Below, one piece after another: positions 4,214 to 28,956 of a stretch of 29,010 bases of DNA. The translations under genes and the position numbers were made by a program. The stretch spans positions 1 through 29,010 of the forward strand of contig JAYPIC010000017.1 in the NCBI GenBank assembly GCA_038127595.1. Reading direction: 5' to 3'. The stretch's first letter is position 1, and each line of letters begins with the position of its first letter. The stretch comes from a bacterium (lineage in GTDB: Bacteria > Fidelibacterota > Marinisomatia > Marinisomatales > UBA1611). The notes beneath the pieces were generated by a model. That model was not told the DNA's origin. It saw nothing but the letters and a program-made list of their open reading frames with translations, and searched no databases.

Positions 4214-5368
4214 ATGAGATCACAATTGAGCTTTATTAGGCGAGTTGTATGCTCGCTGTATGTTCTGTTGCTTTTTGGGCACTCAGTGTCATTTGCTGCA
4301 GAAAAATATGACTTAAAAGGTACTGTTAGAGGTATAGATGATAAGGTAACTGTTGAACTTGCTGGTACTAAAAAAGATGACAAAACCAATAGAGATGGTG
4401 AGTTTAAGTTAAACAATGTTTTGGAAGGCGAATATACTTTACAGGTCATTGCTGACAAAAAAGTAATTCATGAACAATCTATTAAAGTAGATAGTGACAA
4501 TGATAATTTAGAAATTAACGTTGGCTCTTCATCTGCTATAGTTGATAAGACGATCATTTCTGCTGCAGCCACAAGTTCTGTTAGTCAAGAAGTTTCTTCA
4601 GTACCTGTTCCCCAAACAGCAGAAGCTAGCGGAGGAGCATCTAATGATTTTATTTTAAATGAACTTAATTTTGAAATAAAAAAACTAACAGCAGAGTTCA
4701 AGCATCTAAGTAGAGAAATGGATGATCTTAAAGCTTTAAGTAAAATGTGGATCAATCCATTAACTATTTATTCGAAAGAAATAATTTTAAAAAATGGTAG
4801 TACAGTTTTTGGGAAAATTGTATATCAAGATGATAAATCCCTAAAAGTTGAGACCTTGGTTGGTTATTTAATAATAAAGAGAGATGAGGTAGTTCGAATT
4901 GTTGATAATGTTATAACCGAAGATCAGCAAGAATATGTTCCAGAGCAAATTAGAGAAAGTTATGCTCCACCTCCTATGCCCAAATTGACTGTTCCTAAGT
5001 ACACATCTTCAAGTGTCTCTAATAGAGATGCTGGTGAAAAGTTCTCAGCCAATTGCGTTTTAATGGGTAACATATCAGAAAAAAAGGATACACAAGGGAA
5101 TGTTGTTTTTAATGGTGAAATTAAAAACATAGGTGGTAGAAGAGCAGATTTTGTAAAAATGGATTTTGTATTTAGAAAAAATTGGAGCGGAGAAACCCGC
5201 ACATTGACAACATTCATACAAGGTTCTTACAATACTTTCGATAGTGGAATTGTTTCTGATGCTAGCCTGTTGCCAGGAGCTCTAGGGAAGTTCGAATTGT
5301 ATGTTCCTCAAGACTTTGGGTCTTTCATTGGTTATTCCTATGTAATTGATTGGGAAGAGTATCAGTAG
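4214..5368 (+). CDS. Exported multidomain protein: carboxypeptidase-regulatory-like beta-sandwich, coiled coil, small beta domain, C-terminal Ig/FxLYD-like domain
   Basis: Signal peptide ending SFA-AE; LKGTV...TNRDGEFKLNNVLEGEYTLQV (prealbumin-like fold); heptads LNELNFEIKKLTAEFKHLSREMDDLKAL; IILKNGSTVFGKIV; VVFNGEIKNIGG...LLPGALGKFEL. Confidence 0.6.
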   Translation: MRSQLSFIRRVVCSLYVLLLFGHSVSFAAEKYDLKGTVRGIDDKVTVELAGTKKDDKTNRDGEFKLNNVLEGEYTLQVIADKKVIHEQSIKVDSDNDNLEINVGSSSAIVDKTIISAAATSSVSQEVSSVPVPQTAEASGGASNDFILNELNFEIKKLTAEFKHLSREMDDLKALSKMWINPLTIYSKEIILKNGSTVFGKIVYQDDKSLKVETLVGYLIIKRDEVVRIVDNVITEDQQEYVPEQIRESYAPPPMPKLTVPKYTSSSVSNRDAGEKFSANCVLMGNISEKKDTQGNVVFNGEIKNIGGRRADFVKMDFVFRKNWSGETRTLTTFIQGSYNTFDSGIVSDASLLPGALGKFELYVPQDFGSFIGYSYVIDWEEYQ

Positions 5369-5378
5369 AAAATATTTT

Positions 5379-6260
5379 ATGATAATAAAATTACTATATA
5401 TCATTTCAGTATCTCTTGCTTCATATGTCTTCGGCCAAGATGTAGACGAGAATACTTTTCTACCTGATATGGGAGTAGTTATTCAGTCTGCGGATAAGTC
5501 TAGCAAACCAGAGCCTCCATTAGAAAAAAACCGTGTAGTAAAGTTGAACAATATGACTGATAAAAAAGAATCTAATTTTGTTTTTAAAGCTAAAGCATCT
5601 GATATGATTTCATCCATTGATAGAATTACTAGCCATGTTAGCAATCTAGAAAAAGATTATCAGTCCAAGATAGAACAGTTAGAAGCAGAAAATTCCAATT
5701 TAAGAAATCAAATTATCAGTTTAAACCATAGACTTAATTCAGAAATATTAAATGTTAGTTCAACCGAAGTTGAATCAGTCAAGCCAGAAATTGAAGTGTC
5801 TCTTCCACTAGAAATATCATCCGCTGACAACGGTATTGTTGAAGAAGTTGATCCTCAGACAGAAAATATTAGTCATAAAATAAAACTTAAAGATTTTGAT
5901 GAAGATCTCTATATAGAAGGTGTTATACATTATAATAATGAAAAGTTTGATGAGTGTATTGAAAATTTAGGAGTACTTCCTTTTGAAAAAGGTGAGCCTA
6001 GAAATGCTACAAAAGGATTATTTCTGCTTGCTGATTCTTATGAAAAAATTGGAAGGTACAAGCAGGCTTTGCTTTGTTTAGAAAAATTAACATCGTTTAA
6101 TGACCCTCTCTATTCTGAATTAGTTCTTTTTAAAAAAGGAATAATTTATAGAGATATTGGTATGAGGGATAAGGCTCAGAAAGTGTTTCAAACATTAGTT
6201 AACTTTTACCCTGATAGTGAGTATAAAGCATTTGCTGAACAGGAAATACAAAACATATAG
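5379..6260 (+). CDS. Exported coiled-coil + TPR protein, CpoB/YbgF-like architecture
   Basis: ATG 5379 preferred over TTG 5346 because it puts a signal peptide (MIIKLLYIISVSLASYVFG-Q) at the N-terminus. Coiled coil IEQLEAENSNLRNQIISL; three C-terminal TPRs ending AQKVFQTLVNFYPDSEYKAFAEQ. Confidence 0.7.
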   Translation: MIIKLLYIISVSLASYVFGQDVDENTFLPDMGVVIQSADKSSKPEPPLEKNRVVKLNNMTDKKESNFVFKAKASDMISSIDRITSHVSNLEKDYQSKIEQLEAENSNLRNQIISLNHRLNSEILNVSSTEVESVKPEIEVSLPLEISSADNGIVEEVDPQTENISHKIKLKDFDEDLYIEGVIHYNNEKFDECIENLGVLPFEKGEPRNATKGLFLLADSYEKIGRYKQALLCLEKLTSFNDPLYSELVLFKKGIIYRDIGMRDKAQKVFQTLVNFYPDSEYKAFAEQEIQNI

Positions 6261-6267
6261 CATTTAA

Positions 6268-7647
6268 ATGAATAGCAAAAAAAATATATTATTTATACTT
6301 ATATTTTTGTCAAGTATGATTTTTGCATCTGCTCGAGTTGCTTACACTCGCCCTGGTTTAATGATGAGAATTCCAACATCTAGCGTTGAAAAAGCTCCTT
6401 ATATTTTTAGGACTGGCTTTGGGGTAGAGCTCCACAATTTTGACCCCATCAACACAGCTAAAGGTGTTTACTTTGATATGGAATTTGCAAAAGGATTTTC
6501 TGCAGGATTTTCTGCTGTACAAGGGGGAGATACGACAGCTTTAAATTTGATTTCTGAATCTCAATATTCTCCACAAGTAGAATTTGGGTTTCATTTTCAA
6601 CAAAGAATTTTTGTTTATAATGATATTTCTCTTTCAGCAGGTTTGCAAGATATTGTCTTCCAAAACAACCAAGACGACGAACAAGTTTTAAGTTTAAATA
6701 CTGACCTTTTATCTTTTTTTCTAGTGCTTGCTAGTGAGAAAGATTTAGGTGATTATAAGATGAGCACTTTCATGGGTTTCGGTACTGGAGGCCTAGGCCC
6801 GATGGATAGTGTCAAAGTAATAAGTGATTCAGCACAAACGGCAAATGCGGGTGTCTTTGTTGGATTCTTATTGAAAACGCCCTACTTCGGTAGAACTGGT
6901 GGAATGGATATTGTGGGTGAATTCGATGGAACAGGTGTCAATGTGGGACTCCGCATCCCCCTTACCTCGGATTACCGCCTGAACCTTGGGTTCGCCCACA
7001 TAGAGCGTTTACCTAGCTGGAAGACTCGCTATTGGACTGGTCATCCAGCATTTACTGTGGGTTTTGATATGGCAGTACCAAGAGTAGGTGGCGCGTTGCG
7101 ATCCACTTCTAGTGGTCCATCTAATCAGCCTTTGCCGTTAGGTAATGCGTTTCGTTCTGAAAGCGGCTCTATCCCTGCTTATATGGATTCTACGATTGCG
7201 ATGGCTGATTTTACCGTATTGTCGCTAAGAGACTCTATGTCCATGATGAATAATGAAATGCGAAATTTGATGGTACAATTATCTGCTTTGGAGCAAGAAT
7301 CACAATTTCTTGTGGATTCATTGAAACAGCTAAAACTCAGTAAAAATGTCCAAGAAAAAAATATGAATGAGGCTATGAGACACTTATCAAGAAGCCTTAG
7401 ATATTTTTACGCAGGTGATTTTCGTGAGGCACTAAAGGAAGTTGATTTATCATTGGAACTGAAACCTGATTTAGCTTTAGCTTACGCAAGGCGTGGTTCT
7501 ATATATTATAAGTTAGGTGATGTTCAAAGAGCCACGATAAATTGGAATCTCGCACTTAGGTTAGATCCTGAGTATGATGATGTCAGGAATATTTTAAAGG
7601 CGCTTCATGAGAATCGTCTTAAAGAAGCTAATTTGTTTGAGGAGTAA
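6268..7647 (+). CDS. Exported protein: putative outer-membrane beta-barrel (YjbH-like) N-domain, coiled coil, C-terminal TPRs
   Basis: Signal peptide; amphipathic Gly/aromatic strands (VEFGFHFQQ, GVFVGFLL, IVGEFDGTGVNVGLRIPLTSDYRLNLGF, FTVGFDM); coiled coil MNNEMRNLMVQLSALEQESQFLVDSLKQL; clear TPRs LALAYARRGSIYYKLGDVQRATINWNLALRLDPE. Confidence 0.6.
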   Translation: MNSKKNILFILIFLSSMIFASARVAYTRPGLMMRIPTSSVEKAPYIFRTGFGVELHNFDPINTAKGVYFDMEFAKGFSAGFSAVQGGDTTALNLISESQYSPQVEFGFHFQQRIFVYNDISLSAGLQDIVFQNNQDDEQVLSLNTDLLSFFLVLASEKDLGDYKMSTFMGFGTGGLGPMDSVKVISDSAQTANAGVFVGFLLKTPYFGRTGGMDIVGEFDGTGVNVGLRIPLTSDYRLNLGFAHIERLPSWKTRYWTGHPAFTVGFDMAVPRVGGALRSTSSGPSNQPLPLGNAFRSESGSIPAYMDSTIAMADFTVLSLRDSMSMMNNEMRNLMVQLSALEQESQFLVDSLKQLKLSKNVQEKNMNEAMRHLSRSLRYFYAGDFREALKEVDLSLELKPDLALAYARRGSIYYKLGDVQRATINWNLALRLDPEYDDVRNILKALHENRLKEANLFEE

Positions 7648-7650
7648 AAC

Positions 7651-8439
7651 ATGGATATTGCTTTAATTATAGGAGTTATATTTGGTTTTGTTTGTATGAT
7701 AGGTAGTATTGCTTATGCTCTTTTTGTTGAGGGTTCAGCAGGGGGATTTGGTAACTTTCTATCTGCGCCAAGTTTTGGAATTGTATTTGGAGGTATGATT
7801 GCGTCTATATTTGTGGCATTCCCAATGCCTCATGTTGTCGCTCTAGGAAAAGCTATCGGTGCGGTGCTAAAGCCTGCAGATGATAAAATGGGGCCACTTG
7901 TAGATGAAGCTGTTGAAGTAGCTGAAGTTGGTAGAAAAGGTGCAGCTGACCTTGAAAAATCTGTTGATGGTATAAAAAATTACTTTTTTAAGGATGGTGT
8001 TCAGATGGTTGTAGATGGCTATTCTTTAGACGAAATAACTGAAATCATGGAAACTAGAATTGAATATAGAGAAAAAAGAGAAAACGTTCAGAAATCAATG
8101 TTAAAGTCAATGGGTGATTTAGCTCCAGCATGGGGTATGGTAGGTACTCTTATTGGTCTTGTACTTATGTTAGCTGGTTTTGGGGGTGAAGGAGGAGCAG
8201 ACAACTTAGGTGGTGGTATGGCTGCAGCTCTAATTACCACTCTTTATGGTGCTGTTTTTGCAAATTTATTTTTTCTACCAATGGCAGATAAGATGGGCAA
8301 TAAAACTACTCAAACATCGATGTCAGCAGCGTTATTAGTAGAAGCTGCTAGGTTAATCCATCAGAAAAAGCATCCTTTAATTGTTCGTGAAAAATTAAAT
8401 TCATTCATACCTCCTGGAGAGTGGAAAACAGAGGGCTAA
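7651..8439 (+). CDS. motA: Flagellar-type stator A subunit (MotA/PomA family)
   Basis: Four TM segments; MD...IG N-terminus, F.S.PSFGIVFGG, RKG...LE, FFKDGVQMVVDG, APAWGMVGTLIGLVLML, MAAALITTLYGAVFANLFFLP and HPLIVREKLNSF. Confidence 0.93.
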   Translation: MDIALIIGVIFGFVCMIGSIAYALFVEGSAGGFGNFLSAPSFGIVFGGMIASIFVAFPMPHVVALGKAIGAVLKPADDKMGPLVDEAVEVAEVGRKGAADLEKSVDGIKNYFFKDGVQMVVDGYSLDEITEIMETRIEYREKRENVQKSMLKSMGDLAPAWGMVGTLIGLVLMLAGFGGEGGADNLGGGMAAALITTLYGAVFANLFFLPMADKMGNKTTQTSMSAALLVEAARLIHQKKHPLIVREKLNSFIPPGEWKTEG

Positions 8440-8448
8440 GGTTTTCTT

Positions 8449-9330
8449 ATGGCTGGCGCAGAATTTAAAAACGGATACAAAAAAGGTTTTGAAGATGGGG
8501 CTAACTCTGTTGAAGAGGGGCTTCCTGGATGGTTCGGAACTTTTGCAGACATGATGACATTATTATTTGCATTTTTTGTATTACTTGCTGCTATATCCAC
8601 TATGGATCCTGTAAAACTTCAAGAAATGGCAAATTCTGAGGGCAAGTCACTAGGGAGCAAAATCAAAGCCAGCGGAAAAGCTGAAGAAGAAGGTGAGTTT
8701 GAACCAATTAAAAATTTGGCTGAAATGAAAAAAGAGATGGAAGAAACTATCGAGGAGATGAAGAAAGAGAATCCAAAAGGTGACCCTCCAATCGATATTC
8801 AAACTAGCTCAAAAGGTCTAATAGTAAATATCAAAGGCGATTATGCTTTTCCTATTGGTAAAGCCTCTATGAAAGAAGAGTTAAAAGGACTTTTAGATGA
8901 AGAAATTATACCAAAAATTCAATTAAGCCCTTTTCAAGTAGAGGTAGCCGGTCATTCTGATTCAGATAAAATGCCAAAAAAATGGAGAAAGAACTTTGCT
9001 ACTAACTGGGAACTTTCTGCTGCAAGAGGTGCTAGTGTGGTTCGTTATATGATTGACAAGGGAGTACCCGCACCACGATTATTGGCTGCAGGTTATGGTC
9101 CTTGGGCTCCTCATGGACTTGATAGTGTAAAAAAGCAAAACCCAATGTGGAATCCTTTAACATTAACTTGGAAAGACCCTGTTAAGACTGCAGACGGGAA
9201 AGAAATGCCAACTGTTTTAAGTCTAAATAAAAACGAAAAAATGAAATCTAAAAACAGAAGAATTCAAATTACTTTTTTAAATCCGCCACATCATGGTAAG
9301 GGGCGGTCAGCAACAAGCTATGAAGATTAA
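8449..9330 (+). CDS. motB: Flagellar-type stator B subunit (MotB/PomB family) with OmpA-like peptidoglycan-binding domain
   Basis: WFGTFADMMTLLFAFFVLL (conserved Asp34), plug helix DPVKLQEMANS, VEVAGHSD, NWELSAARG, GYG and NRRIQI. Confidence 0.93.
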   Translation: MAGAEFKNGYKKGFEDGANSVEEGLPGWFGTFADMMTLLFAFFVLLAAISTMDPVKLQEMANSEGKSLGSKIKASGKAEEEGEFEPIKNLAEMKKEMEETIEEMKKENPKGDPPIDIQTSSKGLIVNIKGDYAFPIGKASMKEELKGLLDEEIIPKIQLSPFQVEVAGHSDSDKMPKKWRKNFATNWELSAARGASVVRYMIDKGVPAPRLLAAGYGPWAPHGLDSVKKQNPMWNPLTLTWKDPVKTADGKEMPTVLSLNKNEKMKSKNRRIQITFLNPPHHGKGRSATSYED

Positions 9331-9351
9331 ATACATACCGAGGAGTATTTC

Positions 9352-11205
9352 ATGATAAAAATAGTTTCAAATATTAAAAAAAGATTAGCGGTTTTCTTAC
9401 TGTCTGCTCTTTTAATAGGCCAAGGGTCTGGCTACCTAGCACAAAAGCTTATGGTAGAAAATAATATAAGAGAAAGAATTAAAGACGCTCTTTCTAAGAT
9501 TATTGACAGTAATAAATATGTTATTAACGTTGATATTGATCTAGATATTAGTGATGAAGTGGAAGAGCAAATCACAGTTTTGTCAGAAAAAAATTCAAAC
9601 CAGTCTGCTAATGATATGCCTGAAGAAAAGAACACTGTAGAAGAATCTTTATCAAGTATTCAGCAATCAATAGAATCAGAAGAAGAATCTAGCCAGTCTG
9701 GTTACTCTGTTGGGTTACCTATTCCTGGGTTTGAAATGGATTTTACGAATTCAAATAAAGCTTCAAAAAAAGCCGAAGAACCAAAGCCTCCAGTAATGTC
9801 AGTTGAAACAAAGAAACCAATTGAAGTTACTGATAAGAGTAGTAGTTCTAATGAACCTCGGGTTGACAAAATTTTGTCTAGGACAAGACCATCTAGAGCT
9901 GAAGTAAAAAAGATGTATATTAGTTTAATTTTACAAGAGGGAGCTGCTCCAGAGCTTATCGAAAATATCAGACAATTAACTATGGCCGCTGCAAAATTTG
10001 ATAGAAACCGTGGTGATAAGCTAACTATCATGACTGCTAGTTTTAGAGAAAGAAGAGATCAGCGCTCAGCTGAACAGATCATGCTGAAAAACATAGCAGA
10101 AAAAATTGAACTTCTTGAGCAAAAAAGAGAAATTGAAGAAAATACCCAAGATGCTACCTGGAAAGATGAATTAACTAGATATAGAGAAGAAGAGGCGGCT
10201 AGAAGAGAGGATGATAGAAAGTTTTTTGAGGGACAAATTTCACAATTAGAACAGCAAGCCAAAGATCGCGCTTATGCTCAAGAGAAAAAGGACATGCTTT
10301 TAAGAGACTCTTTAAAGCTAAAAAAATTAAATGATGAAATTGTTGCTTTGAAATCAATGCTTAAGAGCGCCGAAAAACGTGATAGTTTAAAAACCGTTAG
10401 CAAGCAAGAACGTATAGATTCTTTAAGGTATGTTAGCCTTAGTACTGAGCTTGATGAGTTAGCAAAATCACTTCAAACTGCAGTTGTTTCAAAATCTAAA
10501 GATGAAGAAGTGAAGGCAAAGCGTAAAATTCAAGCTGAAATGGCTGAGAGAGAAAAACAGAAAGAAAAAAGAGAACAAGAAATTGCTGACAAGATTCGTG
10601 AACTTGATAGCGTTCAAGAAGAGCTAGATAAGTTGCATCAAGATATGGAAAAAGAAAGTGGAAATACTTTCATCATCTTAATTGTTCTTGGTGCTTTGGT
10701 ATTTATTTTGATAGCAGCTTTAATATTTGTTTTGTTAAGAAATAATAGCAGGCAAGCACCTGTTCCTCCTTGGATGATGCCTCCACCACCGCGTAGACCA
10801 AGAAGGAAAAGAAGAGAGGCACCAAATAAAGAGAAAGAGTCTAAACAAAATTCAAAAACTGAAGAACCAGCATCAAAGTCTCAGTCTGAGGAGCCTGTAG
10901 TTACGCCACCTGCACCTCAGCCTGAGCAGTCCGCTGATCAAGAAGTAACAGGCGCTAATAAAGAAGAATCGCAGCCTGAAAGTTCCTTGCCACCATCGAG
11001 TGATAATGATCCAGATGTGGTCAGGAGTGAAATAAATGATATACGCAAATCCGTTGTCTCTATGAGTGTAGGTCAACCGGATAGGACTACCACAATAGTA
11101 AAAGAATGGTTAGAACAACCAGAACCTACACCGCCAGCTGAACCTGAGCAAGAGGCACCTGCTGCTGATGCAGATAGCGATGGTTCTGAAGAGAAAGAAA
11201 AGTAA
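9352..11205 (+). CDS. Atypical FliF-like M-ring protein (RBM3/beta-collar only, long coiled coil, TM helix, FliG-binding tail)
   Basis: VENNIRERIKDALSKIIDSNKYVINVDIDLD, LPIPG, VDKILSRT...VKKMYISLIL and IENIRQLTMAAAKFDRNRGDKLTIMTASF match the FliF C-terminal RBM3 pattern. TM at aa ~440-462. C-terminal VVSMSVGQPDRTTTIVKEWL matches the FliF P-x7-W-L tail. Directly upstream of fliG; GAGGAG RBS. Confidence 0.78.
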   Translation: MIKIVSNIKKRLAVFLLSALLIGQGSGYLAQKLMVENNIRERIKDALSKIIDSNKYVINVDIDLDISDEVEEQITVLSEKNSNQSANDMPEEKNTVEESLSSIQQSIESEEESSQSGYSVGLPIPGFEMDFTNSNKASKKAEEPKPPVMSVETKKPIEVTDKSSSSNEPRVDKILSRTRPSRAEVKKMYISLILQEGAAPELIENIRQLTMAAAKFDRNRGDKLTIMTASFRERRDQRSAEQIMLKNIAEKIELLEQKREIEENTQDATWKDELTRYREEEAARREDDRKFFEGQISQLEQQAKDRAYAQEKKDMLLRDSLKLKKLNDEIVALKSMLKSAEKRDSLKTVSKQERIDSLRYVSLSTELDELAKSLQTAVVSKSKDEEVKAKRKIQAEMAEREKQKEKREQEIADKIRELDSVQEELDKLHQDMEKESGNTFIILIVLGALVFILIAALIFVLLRNNSRQAPVPPWMMPPPPRRPRRKRREAPNKEKESKQNSKTEEPASKSQSEEPVVTPPAPQPEQSADQEVTGANKEESQPESSLPPSSDNDPDVVRSEINDIRKSVVSMSVGQPDRTTTIVKEWLEQPEPTPPAEPEQEAPAADADSDGSEEKEK

Positions 11206-11222
11206 GGGTAGGAGGTTTAGAT

Positions 11223-12167
11223 ATGATAACAGATTATAATCGCCTATCGGGGCTTCATAAAGTTGCAATTCTTTTTTCAGTGCTAGGTGAAAGCCTTGCT
11301 ATGTCGCTTATTAAGGGTTTATCTCGTACTGAGGTAAGAAAAATAAGAGCTACTATTCGAGAAATGGATAGCGTTTCGTTTACGCTGAAAAGACGAATAA
11401 TGGAAGAATTCTATTTTGGTTTTTTAAGTGAACAATTTTCTGAAGAAGGTGGAGATGATGAGGATGAAGGACCCATCAAGCCATTTGAGTTTTTAACTGA
11501 AATGACTGATGAGCAGCTCGTTGCACTTCTTGCAAATGAAGATGTCCCAGTAATTGCTATAGCATTAGCTCAGCTAGACTCATCCAAAAGAATGTCCATA
11601 CTAGAACGTATGAAACCTGAAGAAAAAGGGAAAGTATTAATTGAACTTGGTAGTTTGCAGGATGTTCCTTTAGAAGCGATAGTAGAGGTTGCGGGTAAAT
11701 TAAAAGAAAAAGCATCTTACTTACCCAAGCCAGTTGAGTTTTCTAGGGGCGGAGCCAAAGAGATAGCTGACTTAATTGGAGAGATGAGTGCAGATGAAGC
11801 TGAAAGATATATGCAAACTCTTCAAAATGAAAATCCTGAACTATATAAAGATGTTAAAATGTTAGTTCTAACTTTTGAGGATATTTTGGCTAATTTCCCA
11901 GATGGAATTCTAAGAGATCTTTGTAATAGTGTTGAGCTTGATGCATTAGCAATGGCCTTGAAGGGAATTGAACAAGAAACTGTCGACAGAGTTATTGGTA
12001 ATTTACCTCAGAAAAAACAAGCTATGTTTGAGCCCGTTGAAGGTCCAAAACCCAAGAGGGAGGTTGATGATGCTAGAAAAATCATTGTCACTGCGGCTAA
12101 AGCAATGGAAAAAGAAGGTGCTTTTAATTTAGCAGATATGATGGGTGGTGGAGAAATGATTGAATAA
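11223..12167 (+). CDS. fliG: FliG-like rotor protein
   Basis: LSGLHKVAILFSVLGE (FliG-N), PFEFL, GG linker (SRGGAKEIADLI), ENPEL...TFEDI, LAMALKG, GP...EVDDARKIIV and EGAF; AGGAGG RBS. Confidence 0.9.
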   Translation: MITDYNRLSGLHKVAILFSVLGESLAMSLIKGLSRTEVRKIRATIREMDSVSFTLKRRIMEEFYFGFLSEQFSEEGGDDEDEGPIKPFEFLTEMTDEQLVALLANEDVPVIAIALAQLDSSKRMSILERMKPEEKGKVLIELGSLQDVPLEAIVEVAGKLKEKASYLPKPVEFSRGGAKEIADLIGEMSADEAERYMQTLQNENPELYKDVKMLVLTFEDILANFPDGILRDLCNSVELDALAMALKGIEQETVDRVIGNLPQKKQAMFEPVEGPKPKREVDDARKIIVTAAKAMEKEGAFNLADMMGGGEMIE

Positions 12168-21001: not shown

Positions 21002-23989
21002 ATGGGAAAAATCTCAAAATTAGTCGCTCTCACTTTGTTAATGTCATTTGCGTTATCGCAAACGACAGGTAAAATAAGGGGAACAGTAACCTCAGCAGAT
21101 GGGCAACCACTTGCTGGTGCTAACGTCATTGTTGATGGTACAACAAAAGGTGCCGCTACTGACGGTGAAGGTAATTATACAATATTAAATGTTGAAGCTG
21201 GTTCGTATAGCGTTACTGCATCATACATTGGATATCAAAGCAGTACAGAATCTAATGTATCAGTTAAGGTTGACCTTACTACTCCGCTGAGTTTTGCAAT
21301 GCAGACATCAGCTGTTGAAGGTGAAGCTGTTACAATTGTTGGTGAGAAAAGACTCATTGAGAAAAGTGCTACAAACTCTGTTAGATCTGTAAGTTCTGAA
21401 GAAATTCAAAACTCTGCTTCAAGAAGTGTTTCTGGCATGCTTGATATGCAGGCTGGTGTTAATATTACAAACGGTAGACTCTCTATTCGTGGTAGTAGAG
21501 CAGAAGAGGTTGCTTACACTCTTGATGGAGCATCAATTACTGACGTGGTAAATACTGGTAGAGATGTATCTGCTATTCCTGAAGCTCTTGCAGAGATTTC
21601 TGTTGAGTCTGGAGGATTCGGTGCTCATATTGGTGGTGCTAACTCAGGTGTTGTTAGACAGACATTAAGAACTGGTGGTAACGAAGTGGCGGGGACTGTT
21701 CGTTTTGAAACTGGTGATTATGGCCATACTGATCTAACTGCAACAGTAGGAGTTCCTATTGGAGATAAGGTTAAAACTTTTATTGCGCTTCGCAGTAATC
21801 ATGTTGATGATTGGAATCCAACATACTACACAGATTTTAAAATTAATGATGGTCAGCCTCTAGAAAGTACAGTCTCTGGTAGCACTCCTGATGGTGAAAC
21901 AGTAGTGGTTGATTTTAAATCAGGCGGTAAAGATGGCGTTGCTCATAGAGCTCAAGATATTTTACAAATCAATGCTACTGGAACAGTCGATCTAGGGCCA
22001 TTAAACTTGCGTCTATCCGCAGTAGTTGATAACAATACTTATGAAAGTAATAGTCTACCAATATACTATATGCACAATACAGAGAGGCTACCTAAGACAG
22101 AAAGAAAACTTTCTATGTATAACGCTAGGGCAAACTACTTTTTAAATCCAAATATGCTTTTATCCGCAGGGTTAAGCACATTTAAGCGCACATATGAAAA
22201 ATATGATGATGCTATGGGTAAGCCAGATGGATTTGGAGATCTACTTGGTTGGTATGATTCAACTTCAGTTGCTGCAGCTGGTGTAGATGCTTCTTGGTGG
22301 GCAGGTGGAAACACTAATTTTTCTGTACCAGGAGCTACATACATTTCCCCAGCACCTTATTACGTAGCTAACACATTTGCTTTTTCCAGACCAGGTGATA
22401 TTGCTACTGACTATGATAAGAATGAGCGTTCTTCTTTCGGTTTTGATGCTGGGTTAACCTGGCAAAGAGGTGATCATGAAATCCGCGCAGGGTTTGATTA
22501 TAAGAAATATACTTACCGTGTTTATGAATTAAGTACAACTGCAATGTACAATATCAATAAAGCGATTGCTGATGGTGATTACACGAGAGAAGAGGCTGTT
22601 AGCGGTGATAATGCTCAAGTAACATCTGATCTATCACTATATAATAGAGATGGTCAGATAGGCTATGATGATTATGGTAATGAGATTAATGATGGTTTTG
22701 ATGGTCCTCGTGAGCCAACAGTAACATCTTTCTATGTTAATGACAAATACGAAGCTGGAGATTTAGTATTAAGTGCAGGTGTTCGTATTGATAATTTTAT
22801 GATGGACGATTTTAAAATGAAAGATCCTGCTAATCCAGGTTGGGATCAATCAAATCAAGGTATAATAGCAGATGAGTTCGAAGAGTCTGAAACAAAAAGT
22901 GTGCTTCAACCACGTCTTGGTCTTGCTTTCCCTGTTTCTGATCAAATGGTCTTTCATTTACAGTATGGTAAATTCGCTCAAATGCCAGAACTTGATCTGC
23001 CATATGCATCTACTCGCTATATGCATTTAGTTTGGGGTGGTCAGAACTATACTCCTGATCCAATGGGTTTTGACCTTGATCCAATTGAGACTACTCAATA
23101 TGAAGTAGGTATGAGTTATCAGTTCTTGCCTTCTGCTGCGATTGACGTAACAGCCTTTGCTAAAAATACTACTGGTCAGGTGGTTGTTGGTAAAAATGAG
23201 GCAGTTGACATTTCAAACACATATGGTGTAGCTCAAGATGCTTTCTATTACAAGAATGGTGATTTTACTACGGTGAATGGTTTTGAGTTCACTCTTAGAA
23301 CTCGTAGAGTTAGCAGATTACAAACATTTGCTTCTTACACATGGTCAGATGCGAGAGGAATTAATTCAGATCCTAACACAGGAGCTGGTAATATTGCTCA
23401 GGATCTGTTGAGCCCACCGCCATTAATGATTTCACCACTTTATTATCATAATAAGCATCGTGGCGCGATAGCATTAGATTATCGTTATGGTTCGGATGAT
23501 GGCCTACTAAGTGGTCTTGGTTTTAATTTTGAATATAAATTCAACAGTGGTCATCCGTATACATTGAGCGATGGTGGCATGGGTCAGCGTGCAGCTGATG
23601 AAGGAGCAATTCTTGCAGATGCTCGTTCTCGTGAACCACAAGAGTCAATTGGCGGATCTACTACTCCATGGCAGTACTACGCTAATTTGAAAGTTGATTA
23701 CAAGTTATCACTAGGTGGAGTCGGCGTTACTCTTTTCGCCTATATAGATAATCTGTTTGATACAAAAAATGTTATCAATGTTTACTCAAGATCAGGTAAT
23801 GCTTATGATGATGGATTTTTAACAGATCCAGCATTAAGCTCTGAGATAGTAGCAGCGAATGGTCAGACTTATGTTGATCTTTATCGCAACGTTAATCTAG
23901 AAAATAGGCAGCATTATATGAACGATTTTGGATTAGATGTTTTTGCTACTCCACAAATTGTGAAAATGGGTGTTTCCGTTAATTTCTAA
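21002..23989 (+). CDS. TonB-dependent outer membrane receptor with N-terminal carboxypeptidase-regulatory-like domain
   Basis: Signal peptide; GKIRGTV..ADGQPLAGANV..DGT.KGAATDGEGNYTI; plug IRGSRAEEVAYTLDG; barrel LSAGVRID, QPRLGLAFP and NLFD; C-terminal Phe (GVSVNF); GGAGG RBS. Confidence 0.93.
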   Translation: MGKISKLVALTLLMSFALSQTTGKIRGTVTSADGQPLAGANVIVDGTTKGAATDGEGNYTILNVEAGSYSVTASYIGYQSSTESNVSVKVDLTTPLSFAMQTSAVEGEAVTIVGEKRLIEKSATNSVRSVSSEEIQNSASRSVSGMLDMQAGVNITNGRLSIRGSRAEEVAYTLDGASITDVVNTGRDVSAIPEALAEISVESGGFGAHIGGANSGVVRQTLRTGGNEVAGTVRFETGDYGHTDLTATVGVPIGDKVKTFIALRSNHVDDWNPTYYTDFKINDGQPLESTVSGSTPDGETVVVDFKSGGKDGVAHRAQDILQINATGTVDLGPLNLRLSAVVDNNTYESNSLPIYYMHNTERLPKTERKLSMYNARANYFLNPNMLLSAGLSTFKRTYEKYDDAMGKPDGFGDLLGWYDSTSVAAAGVDASWWAGGNTNFSVPGATYISPAPYYVANTFAFSRPGDIATDYDKNERSSFGFDAGLTWQRGDHEIRAGFDYKKYTYRVYELSTTAMYNINKAIADGDYTREEAVSGDNAQVTSDLSLYNRDGQIGYDDYGNEINDGFDGPREPTVTSFYVNDKYEAGDLVLSAGVRIDNFMMDDFKMKDPANPGWDQSNQGIIADEFEESETKSVLQPRLGLAFPVSDQMVFHLQYGKFAQMPELDLPYASTRYMHLVWGGQNYTPDPMGFDLDPIETTQYEVGMSYQFLPSAAIDVTAFAKNTTGQVVVGKNEAVDISNTYGVAQDAFYYKNGDFTTVNGFEFTLRTRRVSRLQTFASYTWSDARGINSDPNTGAGNIAQDLLSPPPLMISPLYYHNKHRGAIALDYRYGSDDGLLSGLGFNFEYKFNSGHPYTLSDGGMGQRAADEGAILADARSREPQESIGGSTTPWQYYANLKVDYKLSLGGVGVTLFAYIDNLFDTKNVINVYSRSGNAYDDGFLTDPALSSEIVAANGQTYVDLYRNVNLENRQHYMNDFGLDVFATPQIVKMGVSVNF

Positions 23990-24043
23990 TTCTGATCATT
24001 TAATAGAATGATAACAAAAAATAAAAAAGAGGGTATAAAAACC

Positions 24044-27000
24044 ATGAAAATAAAGAATATTAAATTAATAGCAGCTGCGAGTATCATTCTTGTTTCTAGC
24101 TTGTTCTCAAAGGAACTAGCATCAACAAGTGTAAGCTCAAAAGCTACGCAAAGAGTGCTCAATGGTGAAAATCAATCACCTGGCATATCTGTACTTAACA
24201 TTAACAATATAGCATACTGGATTGGAAAAGATGGTGCATATACAACTGCGGGTAGTCCTAATGGTACTATGGCAGATTATCCTATCTTCACAGGAGGATT
24301 CATTTATTCTGATGGTATGTTATGGGGTGCTAAAGTTAAAGGAGATGGGCAAGGTGATGAAGTAAGAGTAGGTGGATCAACATATTATCATGGTTTAAAG
24401 GCAGGTAGAATAATAACAGATGCTGAAGGTAATGTGCTTGGTTCAGATGACCCAGTTAATAACCACGTATGGAGAGTTAGAAAAGACTGGGCAACTGCAG
24501 ACTTAACAGTTGATGCAGCAAATTATTATGCAGTTGGAACTGGTGATGTTTCAGCGGCTCAAATCTCAGTTGTTAAAAACCAATATGAATATGATTGGTA
24601 TAACTGGCCTGCAGCATGGGGTGCTCCTTACCATGATGTAAATGGTGATGGTAGTTATGATCCTGCTGTTGATGTCCCTGGATATCCTGGTGCTGATCAA
24701 ACAATGTGGACTATTGCTAATGATGTTCCACTTATTGTAGATGCTGCGGGAGATAGTATTGGTTATAGTAACACTGCTCCAAGTTTATATGGTGCAGATC
24801 CAATTGGTATTGAACTTCAAATTACTTTGTGGGGTTATGCTTTTGGTGCTAGTGACCCATTAGGTAATAATATTTTCAAGCAGGCAAAAATGAAGTATAT
24901 GGGTCTTCCAGGTACTCCTGATGGAGCGATGCTTGACTCCCTTTATTTTACGCAGTGGTCAGATCCTGACTTGGGTACATATACGGATGATTATGTAGGT
25001 TGCGATATCGATCTCTCTTTTGGATATGTATATAATGGTAATAGGTTAGATGGTGTTTTTAATGGAATTTTTAATTTACCTGTTCCAGCTGGTGGTTATG
25101 ATTTCTTGCAAGGTCCTCCAGATAACATGGATATAGATGGTGATGGTGATACAGAAGAATACCTAGGTATGACCTCATTTACATACTTCGGAGCTGGTTC
25201 TGCTATCTCTGATCCGGATCTATCATCTTACTCTGGTTCATTGCAGTTTTTTAATTTAATGGAAGGGTTTTTACCAAGACCCGAATATCCACAACAAATT
25301 CCTTTTACAGATCCTTCAACAGGTCTAGAAACAAAGTATGCTCTATCTGGTGATCCAACAAGTGGTTCAGGATGGATTGATGGTGTTCAGCTTCCACCTG
25401 GTGATAGAAGAATGGTTATGGCAAGTGGTCCATTTAGATTGAACTTAGGCGAGGAAGCAGATGTTGTATTTGGAATTGCTGGAGGAATGGGATTAGATAA
25501 TGTCTCTTCTGTTTCTGTAGCAAAATTCCATGATCTTTATGGTCAATATGCTTATGATCAAGAGTTTAATCTACCAAGTGCTCCATCTTCTCCAACAGTT
25601 CATGGAATTGAAATGGATGGATCAATTGGTCTTGATTGGGGCTCTGATGAGAACTCGGTTTCGGCAACAGAAGAAACTGTTAGCGCTGGGTTTGAATTTG
25701 AAGGTTATGTTGTTTATCAGCTACCATCTGCAAGCTCGCCATTGAGTGAGGCAGTTAAGGTTGCTACTTATGATAAAGTGAACTTAATCCAAAATATATT
25801 AGACCCATCTATTGATCCAATAACTGGTTTAGTTGTAGATGCAGCTAAGCAAACGGGTACAGATGCTGGCGTACAACGTTATTTTTCAACTGATTATGAT
25901 GAAGTAAGAGGGCGTCCAATGTCGAATGGTATTACTTACCATTTTGCTGTAACTGCTTACAGTTATTTAGCAGATAATGAAGGCAGTCCTTTTAAAACAT
26001 TAGAATCTGGAGAAACAAGAATTGCTGTTACTCCTAGATCTTTAAATCCTGGAGAAACAGTTCATAGTGAAATGAGCTCAGCAATCGACATTACTCATAA
26101 TGGAACTGCTAATGCCACAATCAATGTTAGTGTTATTAATCCTTATGAGTTAAAAGATGAGAGCTATAAAGTTACTTTTGATACTCAAGAGTATTATAGA
26201 GATCTTGATGGTACATGGAAAAAAGTTGTAGCTGGAAGAGCTGCTGGTAAAGCCTCAGATTGTACTGGTTCAACAGTAGCAGCTGCAGCAGTTGCTAGTG
26301 CTACCGTTGGAACTATTGATCTTGTATTAACTTTTACTATGAATTGTGGTAGTAACTGGGTTGATGGAATTGATTTTACATTCCCTGCAGATATGGGAAC
26401 AATAAATAGCTGGGAGGTAATTGGCCCAGGGAATTTATGTTCATATGGAACTGGTTCTGGTCAAAATTGTAATAATCTAGATGGTACTTTAGATGGTAAT
26501 ACTTTGCTGTTCGGTACTGTTAATACAGGTGGAGGTTTTGGTGCTTTTGAAAGTAGTAACACTTTTAAAATTAATTACACACCAGGTTCTGGCGGATACC
26601 CATATGATGTTGGCTTTACTGTTTATGATGATGCTTATGATGGCACGGAGGTAAATGCTGTAGGTACCGCAACAGTTGCAGAGCTGGGTTATGAAACAAA
26701 AACAGAGTATCATTGGAACCTTTCTACCGCAGGTGGTACAGTTCTGCTAGAAGACCAAACTTTCATTGGTGGAGCAGATTTATATGGAGGAGCTAGTGTT
26801 GATAATAATTCTAGCCTACACTATAATTCTGCAGCTGCAGTTACTGTTGATGGATTTCACTTAAATGTAGATGGTGGATATGATTCTCCTGTTGATTATT
26901 TTGAATCTGTTATAACTCCTGACGCTGCTAATGCAGCACTTTACGGAGAGTCTAGCTATGATTTAGGTTCCTATATCAGATATGGTTGGGCGTTAACATC

Positions 27001-27904
27001 AAAAGCTACTGATACATATGGTAACGGTTTAACTTCTGTAGATTTTCTACAAAGAGACATAGAAGTTAGATGGGTTGGTGAATTTGTTGATGAACCAATT
27101 ACAACAGACGCAGGTGTAGTTTATTATACAGCTGATACCAACCTCCCTCATTCATATGCATGGATCAGTGGTTCTAGATTAAGCCCATTAGCTGATCATC
27201 CAGATCCTGCTAACCCTGGTGACGGTTCTTCTTTCAGGGTAGCAGTTCCGTTTGAAGTTTGGGACATGGAAGATCCAAATGGTCCTAGACAAATTGATAT
27301 TGATATTTATGATAGAATACAGTCATTTAACTCAGGAGATACAGTGTATGTGTTTAATCCGTTTGATCGTATGTATACACACTTTATGATGGCTGATTAT
27401 CAAGAAGATGGTCTATATGAGGATGGACCAACTGGAACACCGACTGATTTCTTGACATGGAATATCGTATGGTGGGAAGCACAGTTTAACCAAGGTGATG
27501 TAGTTCGTTTTAATTACGCGAACCCAATTCAGCCTGGCGTAGATGAATTTGTCTTCAGCACAATGGCTAGTGAAACAGTCGCATCAAATGATGTATCCGA
27601 AGTTAGTGTTTATCCAAACCCATACTATGGAACTCATGAGCTAGAAAGTAGTCGTGCAGAAAAATATGTTTCTTTTAACCATTTACCGGTTGAGGCAAAG
27701 ATAGACATTTACTCTTTAGGTGGTGTTTTTGTTAGAAGTATAGACAAAAATGATGCATCACAATTTGCTCAGTGGGATCTTAAGAACCAGTATGGTTATC
27801 CAGTTGCAAGTGGTATGTATGTAGCACGGATCAAATCTGGTGGTGAAGAGAAAATCTTAAAAATTGCACTTGTTCAAGAAACACAAGTGTTGAAATACTA
27901 TTAA
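24044..27904 (+). CDS. Large secreted/surface protein with T9SS type-A-like C-terminal sorting domain
   Basis: ATG 24044 preferred (GAGGG SD, signal peptide MKIKNIKLIAAASIILVSSLFS). C-terminus VSVYPNPY...FNHLP...IYSLGGVFVR...WDLKNQYGYPVASGMYVARI...KILKIALV. Fn3-like segment (GYVVY...YHFAVTAY) and DxDGDG motifs. Confidence 0.8.
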   Translation: MKIKNIKLIAAASIILVSSLFSKELASTSVSSKATQRVLNGENQSPGISVLNINNIAYWIGKDGAYTTAGSPNGTMADYPIFTGGFIYSDGMLWGAKVKGDGQGDEVRVGGSTYYHGLKAGRIITDAEGNVLGSDDPVNNHVWRVRKDWATADLTVDAANYYAVGTGDVSAAQISVVKNQYEYDWYNWPAAWGAPYHDVNGDGSYDPAVDVPGYPGADQTMWTIANDVPLIVDAAGDSIGYSNTAPSLYGADPIGIELQITLWGYAFGASDPLGNNIFKQAKMKYMGLPGTPDGAMLDSLYFTQWSDPDLGTYTDDYVGCDIDLSFGYVYNGNRLDGVFNGIFNLPVPAGGYDFLQGPPDNMDIDGDGDTEEYLGMTSFTYFGAGSAISDPDLSSYSGSLQFFNLMEGFLPRPEYPQQIPFTDPSTGLETKYALSGDPTSGSGWIDGVQLPPGDRRMVMASGPFRLNLGEEADVVFGIAGGMGLDNVSSVSVAKFHDLYGQYAYDQEFNLPSAPSSPTVHGIEMDGSIGLDWGSDENSVSATEETVSAGFEFEGYVVYQLPSASSPLSEAVKVATYDKVNLIQNILDPSIDPITGLVVDAAKQTGTDAGVQRYFSTDYDEVRGRPMSNGITYHFAVTAYSYLADNEGSPFKTLESGETRIAVTPRSLNPGETVHSEMSSAIDITHNGTANATINVSVINPYELKDESYKVTFDTQEYYRDLDGTWKKVVAGRAAGKASDCTGSTVAAAAVASATVGTIDLVLTFTMNCGSNWVDGIDFTFPADMGTINSWEVIGPGNLCSYGTGSGQNCNNLDGTLDGNTLLFGTVNTGGGFGAFESSNTFKINYTPGSGGYPYDVGFTVYDDAYDGTEVNAVGTATVAELGYETKTEYHWNLSTAGGTVLLEDQTFIGGADLYGGASVDNNSSLHYNSAAAVTVDGFHLNVDGGYDSPVDYFESVITPDAANAALYGESSYDLGSYIRYGWALTSKATDTYGNGLTSVDFLQRDIEVRWVGEFVDEPITTDAGVVYYTADTNLPHSYAWISGSRLSPLADHPDPANPGDGSSFRVAVPFEVWDMEDPNGPRQIDIDIYDRIQSFNSGDTVYVFNPFDRMYTHFMMADYQEDGLYEDGPTGTPTDFLTWNIVWWEAQFNQGDVVRFNYANPIQPGVDEFVFSTMASETVASNDVSEVSVYPNPYYGTHELESSRAEKYVSFNHLPVEAKIDIYSLGGVFVRSIDKNDASQFAQWDLKNQYGYPVASGMYVARIKSGGEEKILKIALVQETQVLKYY

Positions 27905-27927
27905 TCACCATATAAACGGAGATAAAA

Positions 27928-28956
27928 ATGAAAAAACATATTATTACAAGTTTAGTAATTATAGCAATTAGCTCTCTAGTTGTTGCTCAGAGTTCTAGAA
28001 TGGGTTCTGCATCATCAACACAGCTGCTCGTAGTTCCTAGTGCTAAGCACCTTTCAGGTGGTGGTGCTGCTGCTACAGCAACAGGGATGGATGCTACATT
28101 TTGGAATCCTGCTGGATTGGCAATGAGTGAAAATAGTATTGATGCAATTTTCTCAAATCGTCAGTATTTCGCAGATATTGATAACAGCTTCTTTGGGGTT
28201 GCAACAGATATTGGTGAATATAAAATGGGTGTTACTGTAAGGACATTTAACATCGGTGATATAAATGAAACCACTGTTTATTTTCCGGATGGAACTGGTC
28301 AGGTATTTACGCCTAACTTTTCTATCCTAGGTGGAAGTATTGCTAAAAAGCTATCTGACAATACTAGCGTTGGCATGAACGTAAACTACGTTAGAGAAGG
28401 ATTTGGTAGAGTTTCTGCTTCTGGCGTTGCTTACGACTTAGGCGTTCAATACAAAGGACTACTTGGTAGAGAAAATTTAGATGTTGGATTTGCTCTTAAA
28501 AACTTTGGTAGCCCAGTCAAGTATGATGGTCCAGGCTTAGGTGTGTTTGCTGAACCTTCAGATGCTGATAGACCTTCAGAGTATTATAAAATTGATGCTG
28601 CTGCTTTTGATTTGCCTTTTACATTTGATATGGCTATTTCATATAATATTGCAGGAGCTGATCTAGGTGCGACTTACACTAGTAATTATTATTCTACAGA
28701 TGAGTTAAAGCTTAGTGTCGGATACAAAATTGAAGGGCTTGGCTCTGTAGGTGTTGGAATTCAAACCTCTGGAGCTGCTCAAGAGATTGAAGATGCTGAT
28801 GGTGATTGGTATACAAATCCATCAGATGGTGTATCTTTTGGCGCTTCCGTTGACCTATCTAGATATGTTGGAACTAATCTTAGTGTAGATTATTCTATGC
28901 TTCCAATGGGTGACTTTGGAACGAATTCTGTAGTTGCTTTGAGATTAGCATTTTAA
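27928..28956 (+). CDS. PorV/PorQ-family (FadL-like) outer membrane beta-barrel
   Basis: Signal peptide; LLVVPSAKHLSGGGA..A..GMDATFWNPAGLA hatch motif; AYDLGVQY, GFALKNFG, DLP and VDYS; C-terminal Phe. Confidence 0.85.
   Translation: MKKHIITSLVIIAISSLVVAQSSRMGSASSTQLLVVPSAKHLSGGGAAATATGMDATFWNPAGLAMSENSIDAIFSNRQYFADIDNSFFGVATDIGEYKMGVTVRTFNIGDINETTVYFPDGTGQVFTPNFSILGGSIAKKLSDNTSVGMNVNYVREGFGRVSASGVAYDLGVQYKGLLGRENLDVGFALKNFGSPVKYDGPGLGVFAEPSDADRPSEYYKIDAAAFDLPFTFDMAISYNIAGADLGATYTSNYYSTDELKLSVGYKIEGLGSVGVGIQTSGAAQEIEDADGDWYTNPSDGVSFGASVDLSRYVGTNLSVDYSMLPMGDFGTNSVVALRLAF

Follow-up and report, generated by a model that had tools for sequence, protein, structure and literature searches.

Outside the flagellum, FliF, FliG and MotAB are hardly known; within it, the MS-ring is both the housing of the type III export gate and the rotor. 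A ring domain of the RBM3 type, with a beta insert, also builds the SpoIIIAG sporulation channel ring, in which it is used without RBM1 and RBM2. Here we describe a FliF-like protein of 617 amino acids (aa), FliF′, which is encoded at 9352..11205 on the forward (+) strand of a 29,010-nucleotide stretch of DNA (the window; positions 1 to 29,010 of contig JAYPIC010000017.1, assembly GCA_038127595.1). The source organism belongs to the Fidelibacterota, the newer name of the Marinimicrobia (SAR406) phylum according to the available text of PMC11652737. Of the periplasmic domains of FliF, FliF′ keeps only RBM3, which builds the S-ring. It is not a broken FliF but the defining part of a separate conserved module that includes a neighbouring FliG-like protein (FliG′) and a MotA/MotB pair.

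We compared FliF′ with the MS-ring protein of Salmonella and Vibrio (PDB 6sd1, 6scn, 7bk0 and 8z5v). Like FliF, it has an RBM3 domain with an insert at the collar position, a GxPG motif in that insert, a transmembrane (TM) helix after the periplasmic part, a C-terminal two-helix motif resembling the FliG-binding tail, and a gene directly upstream of fliG. Unlike FliF, it lacks RBM1-RBM2 and hence an inner M-ring for FliPQR-FlhB, it starts with what resembles a cleaved signal peptide more than the first TM helix (TM1), and 123-208 helical residues separate RBM3 from the TM helix, where FliF has almost none. Some of the genomes that encode it lack genes for the export gate, rod, hook and filament altogether. 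SpoIIIAG, in contrast, belongs to the spoIIIA operon, which holds no FliG or MotAB, and it lacks the C-terminal TM helix and the probable FliG-binding tail of FliF′.

A further reduced relative is the chlamydial FliF-FliG fusion, which is the sole architectural exception noted in the available text of Bergeron 2016 (PMC4768692). As described there, the fusion keeps RBM2 and another RBM-like region without a SpoIIIAG-like RBM3, and a link to the injectisome is discussed. The fusion and FliF′ are alike in that a reduced FliF relative is linked to FliG in an organism without a flagellum, but FliF′ keeps the opposite half of FliF and has a separate FliG gene and dedicated MotAB. In our searches of the main texts of the literature, an RBM3-only FliF accompanied by a FliG and MotAB of its own was nowhere described, nor does the available text of PMC4768692, PMC12505986, PMC13277936 or PMC11652737 mention an RBM3-only FliF with MotAB and FliG.

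Domain content and fold of FliF′

An earlier note on this DNA had read the segment 9352-10044, the first 231 codons of the open reading frame (ORF), as a signal-peptide-like N-terminus followed directly by an RBM3 pattern, with RBM1-RBM2 absent, and had predicted that a Pfam scan would return YscJ_FliF_C without YscJ_FliF. The scan returned exactly that. YscJ_FliF_C (PF08345) matched aa 47-231 with an E-value of 9.7e-10 and 39.5 bits (cut-off 23.8), and the match spanned the entire profile (1-147 of 147). YscJ_FliF (PF01514), which covers RBM1-RBM2, had no match in FliF′ at E <= 0.1. When we extended the Pfam search to 30 representatives, PF01514 was missing from all 27 non-canonical relatives and was found in the three marginal matches that are canonical FliF. 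Judged from these sequences, the absence of RBM1-2 is a trait of the family and not a truncation. No NCBIfam family, the curated FliF model included, matched FliF′ at E <= 0.01.

The RBM3 domain comprises aa 24-231 (9421..10044, +), and its predicted fold is that of FliF. An AlphaFold2 model of aa 1-260, based on a 33-row alignment, reached a mean predicted local distance difference test (pLDDT) score of 76 and showed a helix up to residue 47, strands at 56-67 and 70-76, a low-confidence insert at 77-172, strands at 173-179 and 182-195, a helix at 200-213 and a strand at 223-229. This order of helix-strand-strand, low-confidence insert and strand-strand-helix-strand is that of RBM3. In a Foldseek search of the PDB, all 18 matches at E <= 1e-3 were RBM3/S-ring chains of FliF (E 1.7e-7 to 1.1e-5). 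VIA-align placed residues 25-231 of the model on residues 231-437 of Salmonella FliF (6sd1_A) with a Z-score of 15.8 and a root-mean-square deviation of 5.3 over 125 aligned residues. The 14 FliF cryo-EM entries scored 13.4-15.8 and a FliF-YlxF integrative model 11.4, and the best non-FliF fold among the matches listed scored 9.4, so that the structural similarity to FliF on which the earlier note had staked its reading was borne out. SpoIIIAG appeared neither among the Foldseek matches at E <= 1e-3 nor among the 50 VIA-align matches listed, and the two proteins may still be related in fold.

The profile of 33 FliF′ relatives matched Vibrio FliF at residues 270-461 (E 3.8e-6), and seven residues of the RBM3 region are invariant (Q31, K32, P125, R207, G221, D222 and F231). 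The insert at the position of the FliF beta-collar (aa 77-172; 9580..9867, +) is of low complexity and 65-109 aa long in 40 relatives. It contains the motif GLPIPGFE (aa 121-128), which aligns with the GxPGALSNQ stretch of E. coli and Vibrio FliF; besides the invariant P125, G126 is kept in at least 90% of the relatives. Based on published FliF structures, a ring of RBM3 alone would be unable to hold a type III export gate, as the earlier note had argued.

The first 23 residues (9352..9420, +) probably form a cleaved Sec signal peptide and not a retained TM1. The apolar run in this pre-sequence is 12 aa long, whereas TM1 of five canonical FliF has one of 17-27 aa. All 40 aligned relatives have G, A or S at position -1 (19, 13 and 8 sequences) and Gln (Gln24) at position +1; a charged residue stands at -2 in several of them. 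These features agree with the signal-peptide-like start that the earlier note had described. Because the Bacteroidetes 'Q-rule' is stated not to be valid for the whole FCB group in the available text of PMC5837995, the invariant Gln24 is not explained by that rule alone.

Between RBM3 and the membrane lies a K/E/R/L-rich helical linker, a predicted periplasmic coiled-coil stalk at aa 240-437 (10069..10662, +) with a hinge at aa 343-360. The full-length AlphaFold2 model (mean pLDDT 67) has helices at 240-342, 361-379 and 383-465. From the end of RBM3 to the TM helix, the linker has a median length of 166 aa (range 123-208) in the 39 of 40 aligned relatives with a clear TM helix, and FliF′ of the window organism's family carries an extra block of approximately 45 aa. 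As a fully extended helix, at 0.15 nm per residue, it would span about 18-31 nm. The model, summarized as two long helices with a break, does not discriminate between such a stalk and a hairpin.

The linker leads into a single clear TM helix followed by a Pro/Arg/Lys-rich stretch (aa 438-465; 10663..10746, +), at which Kyte-Doolittle values in 19-residue windows reach up to 3.4. The cytoplasmic tail is rich in Pro, Glu and Ser and ends in a conserved two-helix motif (aa 548-590; 10993..11121, +; AlphaFold2 helices 554-574 and 576-588), which is likely a FliG-binding peptide. Identity across this motif remains at 60-67% even in relatives with a diverged middle region, and the family profile gives a weak alignment of the motif with the part of Vibrio FliF that binds FliG (562-578). 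A complex prediction for FliG′ aa 1-105 with FliF′ aa 540-600 scored 0.46, compared with 0.01 for the best of three controls; at least 90% of the contacts agreed between runs, and the partner pLDDT was at least 62. Of 157 solved complexes, 116 reach the mark applied to such predictions, as do 2 of 215 mismatched pairs; with scores of 0.60 or under, only 18 of the 157 and both mismatches do so. Because FliF-FliG complexes have already been solved, the pass may be due to likeness alone. Many FliF′ relatives end in 5-11 lysines (GKKKKKKKK), and the window protein ends in EEKEK; a polybasic end of this kind could hold the tail at the membrane.

The gene cluster and its distribution in the phylum

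FliF′ is encoded by the sixth of seven co-directional, tightly spaced genes, in the order A, B, C, MotA, MotB, FliF′ and FliG′; the next gene lies on the opposite strand. The order A-(B)-C-MotA-MotB-FliF′-FliG′ is the same for six genes in all 13 inspected loci, including loci from a different class and from closed genomes. The MotA-type stator A subunit (262 aa; 7651..8439, +) matches PF01618 with an E-value of 2.6e-27 and is PomA/MotP-like (NCBIfam MotP 176 bits, PomA 153 bits, both under the equivalog cut-offs). The B subunit (293 aa; 8449..9330, +) has the plug (PF13677 MotB_plug, E 5.2e-15) and the OmpA-like peptidoglycan-binding domain (PF00691 OmpA, E 9.1e-10) of MotB. The equivalents of E. 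coli MotA R90, E98, P173 and P222 and of MotB Asp32 are kept in 14/14 sequences. Rotor and stator pair through R90/D288-D289 and E98/R281 according to the available text of PMC12505986.

FliG′ (314 aa; 11223..12167, +) has the N, M and C domains of FliG (PF14842, PF14841 and PF01706, all above cut-offs), and it reaches 104.5 bits with TIGR00207, the cut-off of which is 226.7. K264 is kept and R281 is replaced by K. The FliM-binding EHPQR motif is not conserved, its place being taken by EDVPV in the window protein and by EEPRV in most relatives.

Five longer relatives of FliG′ (P0248-P0252, 760-833 aa) carry FliG_M and FliG_C at the C-terminus, preceded by a signal peptide, periplasmic repeats of a helix-strand-strand-helix-strand-like kind, a Ser/Asn-rich stretch and one TM helix. 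By their sequences they look like fused ring-FliG rotors, in which the ring part and FliG are one polypeptide instead of the two gene products FliF′ and FliG′. The FliF′ profile showed no detectable similarity to their N-terminal halves (hhalign probability of 0.3 for P0250), and common descent of the ring parts is therefore not supported.

Contigs from metatranscriptomes (four runs of four studies) covered 26-29 of the 30 bins into which 4214-12167 was divided, with one bin uncovered in X1, X2 and X3 and four in X8. They bridge motB and fliF′ (X2, 9242-10934) as well as fliF′ and fliG′ (X1 and X8, 10834-11353 and 10834-11384). Such contigs indicate presence alone, not strand, level or a single transcript, and DNA carry-over is possible.

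The source genome (2.0 Mb, 133 contigs, 95.8% complete) has one FliF_C locus and one FliG_C locus, both within the window. Profile searches of this genome found no match to PF01514 (RBM1-2/SctJ), FHIPEP (FlhA), FliP, flagellin N or FliMN_C, and each of these profiles was positive in 4 of 14 control genomes. A separate RBM1-2 gene accompanied by an export gate, which the earlier note had named as refuting its reading, is thus not among the matches. Rod proteins were found in 0/13 genomes of the window organism's family. Of motility, the available text of the Fidelibacter paper says only 'non-motile'.

We then mapped the fliF′ gene across the phylum. Among close genomes, searched with FliF′ aa 1-260 as the query, 33 of 41 contain it, with matches that always start at query residues 3-22 and ORFs of approximately 500-624 aa. 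In a sample of 201 phylum genomes, each at least 80% complete, 144 had a match, of which 140 were at E <= 1e-20; the remaining four (1e-4 to 1e-5) are all in FlhA-bearing genomes and are probably canonical FliF. FlhA was above the cut-off in 50 of the 201. A hand tally gave 34 genomes with fliF′ and FlhA, 106 with fliF′ alone, 16 with FlhA alone and 45 with neither. One genome of the same family as the window organism (G011) has two full-length copies of fliF′ (C7:13394-14155 and C52:2527-3255; ORFs of 614 and 611 aa, 61% and 55% identical), which could be a duplication or mixed strains; this genome has 3% contamination.

Beyond the phylum sample, a search of 1.84 billion cluster representatives gave 127 matches to FliF′ at E <= 1e-3. 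The full-length ones start at residues 5-37, a few longer proteins match further in (approximately 120-325), and canonical FliF appears at the margin only. In a word-index search, the best 120 of 1844 matches were copies with 98-100% identity.

Three flagellated relatives (G153, which is closed, G036 and G030) have two FliG genes each. In all three, a canonical fliG (137-144 bits) adjoins a canonical fliF (534-538 aa, with PF01514) and a divergent fliG (69-74 bits) adjoins fliF′. Two other genomes that are nearly closed (G064 on one contig and G204 on two contigs) have fliF′ and, as their only FliG, the divergent one, without PF01514, and neither is among the FlhA matches. Because flagellated relatives have a separate canonical fliF-fliG pair elsewhere in the genome in addition to fliF′-fliG′, the ring represents a paralogous system that is independent of the flagellum. 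Together with the source genome, which gave no match for flagellar export, flagellin or FliM/N, this supports the conclusion that FliF′ is not part of a flagellum, which was also the position of the earlier note.

A putative rotor-stator machine and its alternatives

We propose, with a probability of roughly 0.6, that FliF′ is the ring-forming core of a rotor-stator machine that works independently of the flagellum. The basis for this reading is that FliF′ is always encoded with a FliG paralogue and a MotA/MotB pair in which the ion-binding and rotor-facing residues are intact, and that this set occurs with or without flagellar genes. After cleavage of the signal peptide, mature FliF′ would be anchored by its single TM helix, and many copies would form an S-ring-like periplasmic ring on a palisade of helices of about 120-210 residues, 18-31 nm long if fully extended. 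With the signal peptide cleaved, the helical stalk would carry the ring at its distal tip and would suffice to reach the peptidoglycan or the outer-membrane side, where the highly conserved proteins A and C, and often B, are candidate loads or scaffolds. The cytoplasmic tails would recruit a ring of FliG′, and units of the MotA5B2 type, fixed to the peptidoglycan via MotB, would turn this ring by ion-motive force. Because there is neither a switch complex nor an axial structure, the output would have to lie in the envelope. Without a FliM/FliN switch, RBM1-2, export gate, rod or filament, the work would stay within the envelope, and the three co-conserved periplasmic or outer-membrane proteins A, B and C would probably receive or transmit it; they may be the load or a stator scaffold.

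In a more specific form, which we offer tentatively and hold with clearly less confidence, the machine would be a free-standing rotary motor of the envelope. Approximately thirty FliF′ chains would stand as an S-ring on a rotating cage of 18-31 nm helices, driven by the FliG′ ring and MotAB without a type III core, and would turn or drag outer-membrane or periplasmic partners (genes A and C). If this is true, the rotor-stator half of the flagellar motor is an autonomous module, whether a holdover from a pre-flagellar rotor or the product of later reuse, and it occurs throughout a phylum that ranks among the most abundant bacteria of the dark ocean.

Several points weigh against a rotor. Ring formation and subunit number are presumed, and rotation is deduced from homology alone. 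The collar-equivalent insert is of low complexity, with pLDDT below 50-60, and a beta-collar is therefore not supported. Should the N-terminal segment be retained in the membrane, the geometry would be different, because the long linker would have to double back in a hairpin. The prediction of a complex between FliG′ and the FliF′ tail gave weak support. The torque helix of FliG′ is four residues shorter than that of E. coli and has lost R297, and the D288/D289 pair is cut to one Glu in 13/14 sequences; because of these changes, the rotor-stator interface would differ from the canonical one. Among PDB sequences, the gene C and gene A profiles matched only TPR proteins and a NOMO/CarboxypepD_reg-type domain, and no output component was identified among them. 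Finally, fliF′ was found in 0/16 genomes of one family (f12) and in 5/23 of another (f25), and several other lineages showed nothing beyond a match at the level of canonical FliF; because it was not found in whole lineages, the gene is dispensable.

The main alternative, which we nevertheless consider unlikely, is a non-rotary transducer of the Tol-Pal/TonB type, in which the MotAB-like pair would be powered by ion-motive force and transmit conformational work via FliG′/FliF′ and the long periplasmic helices to outer-membrane or TPR partners. The work would serve envelope integrity, division or uptake, and the ring would be a scaffold and not a rotor. The periplasmic helix of FliF′ is as long as that of TolA, MotB carries a peptidoglycan-binding domain of the OmpA/Pal type, and gene B resembles CpoB/YbgF and BamD-type TPR proteins in weak matches under the cut-offs. 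The source genome has three MotA_ExbB loci, namely this cluster, an ExbB-ExbD-ExbD-TonB set and a second MotAB-like pair, and a TolQ-TolR-TolA set is not among them; TolB and Pal were not searched for, so this absence does not establish that Tol-Pal is missing. The stator, however, is of the flagellar type, with the plug, the OmpA domain, PomA/MotP-like similarity and the equivalents of R90 and E98. Moreover, we know of no role of a three-domain FliG outside torque generation.

We regard it as very unlikely that the module is the motor of type IX secretion (T9SS) or gliding and stands in for GldL/GldM. The window does encode a PorV/PorQ-family protein and a 1298-aa protein with a T9SS sorting domain, SprA_N is present in 199/201 phylum genomes, and the NCBIfam GldL and GldM models found no match in the source genome; these models were positive in 0/14 control genomes, so the negative is not validated. 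The T9SS genes lie approximately 10 kb from the cluster, past genes on the opposite strand. In family f12, SprA is present in 16/16 genomes and fliF′ in none of them, so T9SS exists without the module.

Less probable still is a static channel ring like that of SpoIIIAG, a periplasmic conduit without torque. An RBM3-type domain alone does build the SpoIIIAG ring, and the third domain of FliF is SpoIIIAG-like as stated in the available text of PMC4768692. Against this stand the structural and sequence matches, of which all strong ones are FliF, the predicted FliG-binding tail of the FliF type, and the neighbourhood, in which motAB precedes and fliG′ follows fliF′ in 13/13 loci and no spoIIIA-type genes accompany motA, motB and fliG. 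The idea that the genes are merely the eroding, functionless leftover of a flagellar cluster that was lost is hardly credible: the source genome lacks matches to the other flagellar genes searched and FlhA is still in 50/201 phylum genomes, hence flagella were lost many times, but the ORFs are intact with conserved functional residues in 140/201 genomes and 13/13 inspected loci, the architecture is the same across classes, flagellated members have the module in addition to a separate canonical fliF-fliG, and the non-flagellar partners A and C are more conserved than FliF′ (53-64% versus 31%).

A rotor-stator machine built on FliF′ would have several consequences. The rotor half alone, under clear selection, is present in most sampled genomes of a globally abundant, nearly uncultured phylum. 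A torque-making module kept and used without type III secretion bears on the modular assembly of the flagellum, and it hints at an ion-driven envelope process in SAR406 bacteria that would be relevant to deep-ocean carbon cycling. With one ring domain, no switch complex and no axial parts, such a rotor would be smaller and easier to study than the flagellar motor. Genome surveys in which fliF, fliG or motAB matches count as 'motility' will misclassify such bacteria.

Genes A, B and C and other loci

Besides a signal peptide, the product of gene A (384 aa; 4214..5368, +) has a CarboxypepD_reg-like beta-sandwich and a short coiled coil, and at its C-terminus lie two highly conserved beta-rich domains. 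Its Pfam matches (PF13715/PF13620) are both under the cut-off, and there is a weak match to NCBIfam Lepto_7_Nterm. The gene is present in 13/13 relatives' loci, and its alignment has a mean column identity of 53%. In the two most distant loci (L070 of G153 and L072 of G064), gene A lacks the CarboxypepD_reg-like domain and starts in a lipoprotein-like manner (LSGCA and LDGCA); its product may carry a lipid anchor in these two and be secreted without one in the lineage of the window organism.

Gene B (304 aa; 5346..6260, +) encodes a coiled coil and TPRs and is weakly like CpoB/YbgF and BamD. Pfam assigned TPR_2 and TPR_6, and the NCBIfam matches to BamD, CpoB and YbgF are all far under the cut-offs. 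It was found in 10/13 loci; in the other three (L013, L020 and L022), genes A and C abut and leave no room for it.

Gene C (459 aa; 6268..7647, +) encodes a signal peptide, a beta-rich N-terminal domain of approximately 260 aa that is rich in Gly and aromatic residues, and a coiled coil; the TPRs at its C-terminus (Pfam TPR_2 at aa 403-436) are almost invariant. The mean column identity of its alignment is 64%, compared with 31% for FliF′. The gene is present in 13/13 loci, and one of these (L014, G031:C12) shows the C-terminal half alone, detected over query residues 225-452 in a 229-aa ORF; the N-terminal part may be frameshifted or much diverged there. We also followed a lead that gene C might encode an outer-membrane barrel. 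Clusters of YjbH (PF06082) came up at 0.94 in a feature search, in a set of 19 matches, and the lead was not confirmed: hhalign gave a probability of 0.3 against E. coli YjbH, and TPR families were the only Pfam matches at E <= 0.1.

The second MotAB-like pair of the source genome (L067, C8:39164-42553) is an orphan pair of a MotA-like protein (292 aa) and a MotB-like protein with plug and OmpA domain (241 aa). It is flanked by a gene for a rhomboid protease and by one for a protein with Big_9/cadherin-like domains. The pair may serve the FliF′ rotor as an additional stator or belong to a system of its own.

The far part of the window (21002-28956) encodes a SusC/RagA-like TonB-dependent receptor (21002-23989), the 1298-aa protein with the C-terminal T9SS sorting domain (24008-27904) and the PorV/PorQ-family protein (27928-28956), which reached 90.3 bits against a cut-off of 90.

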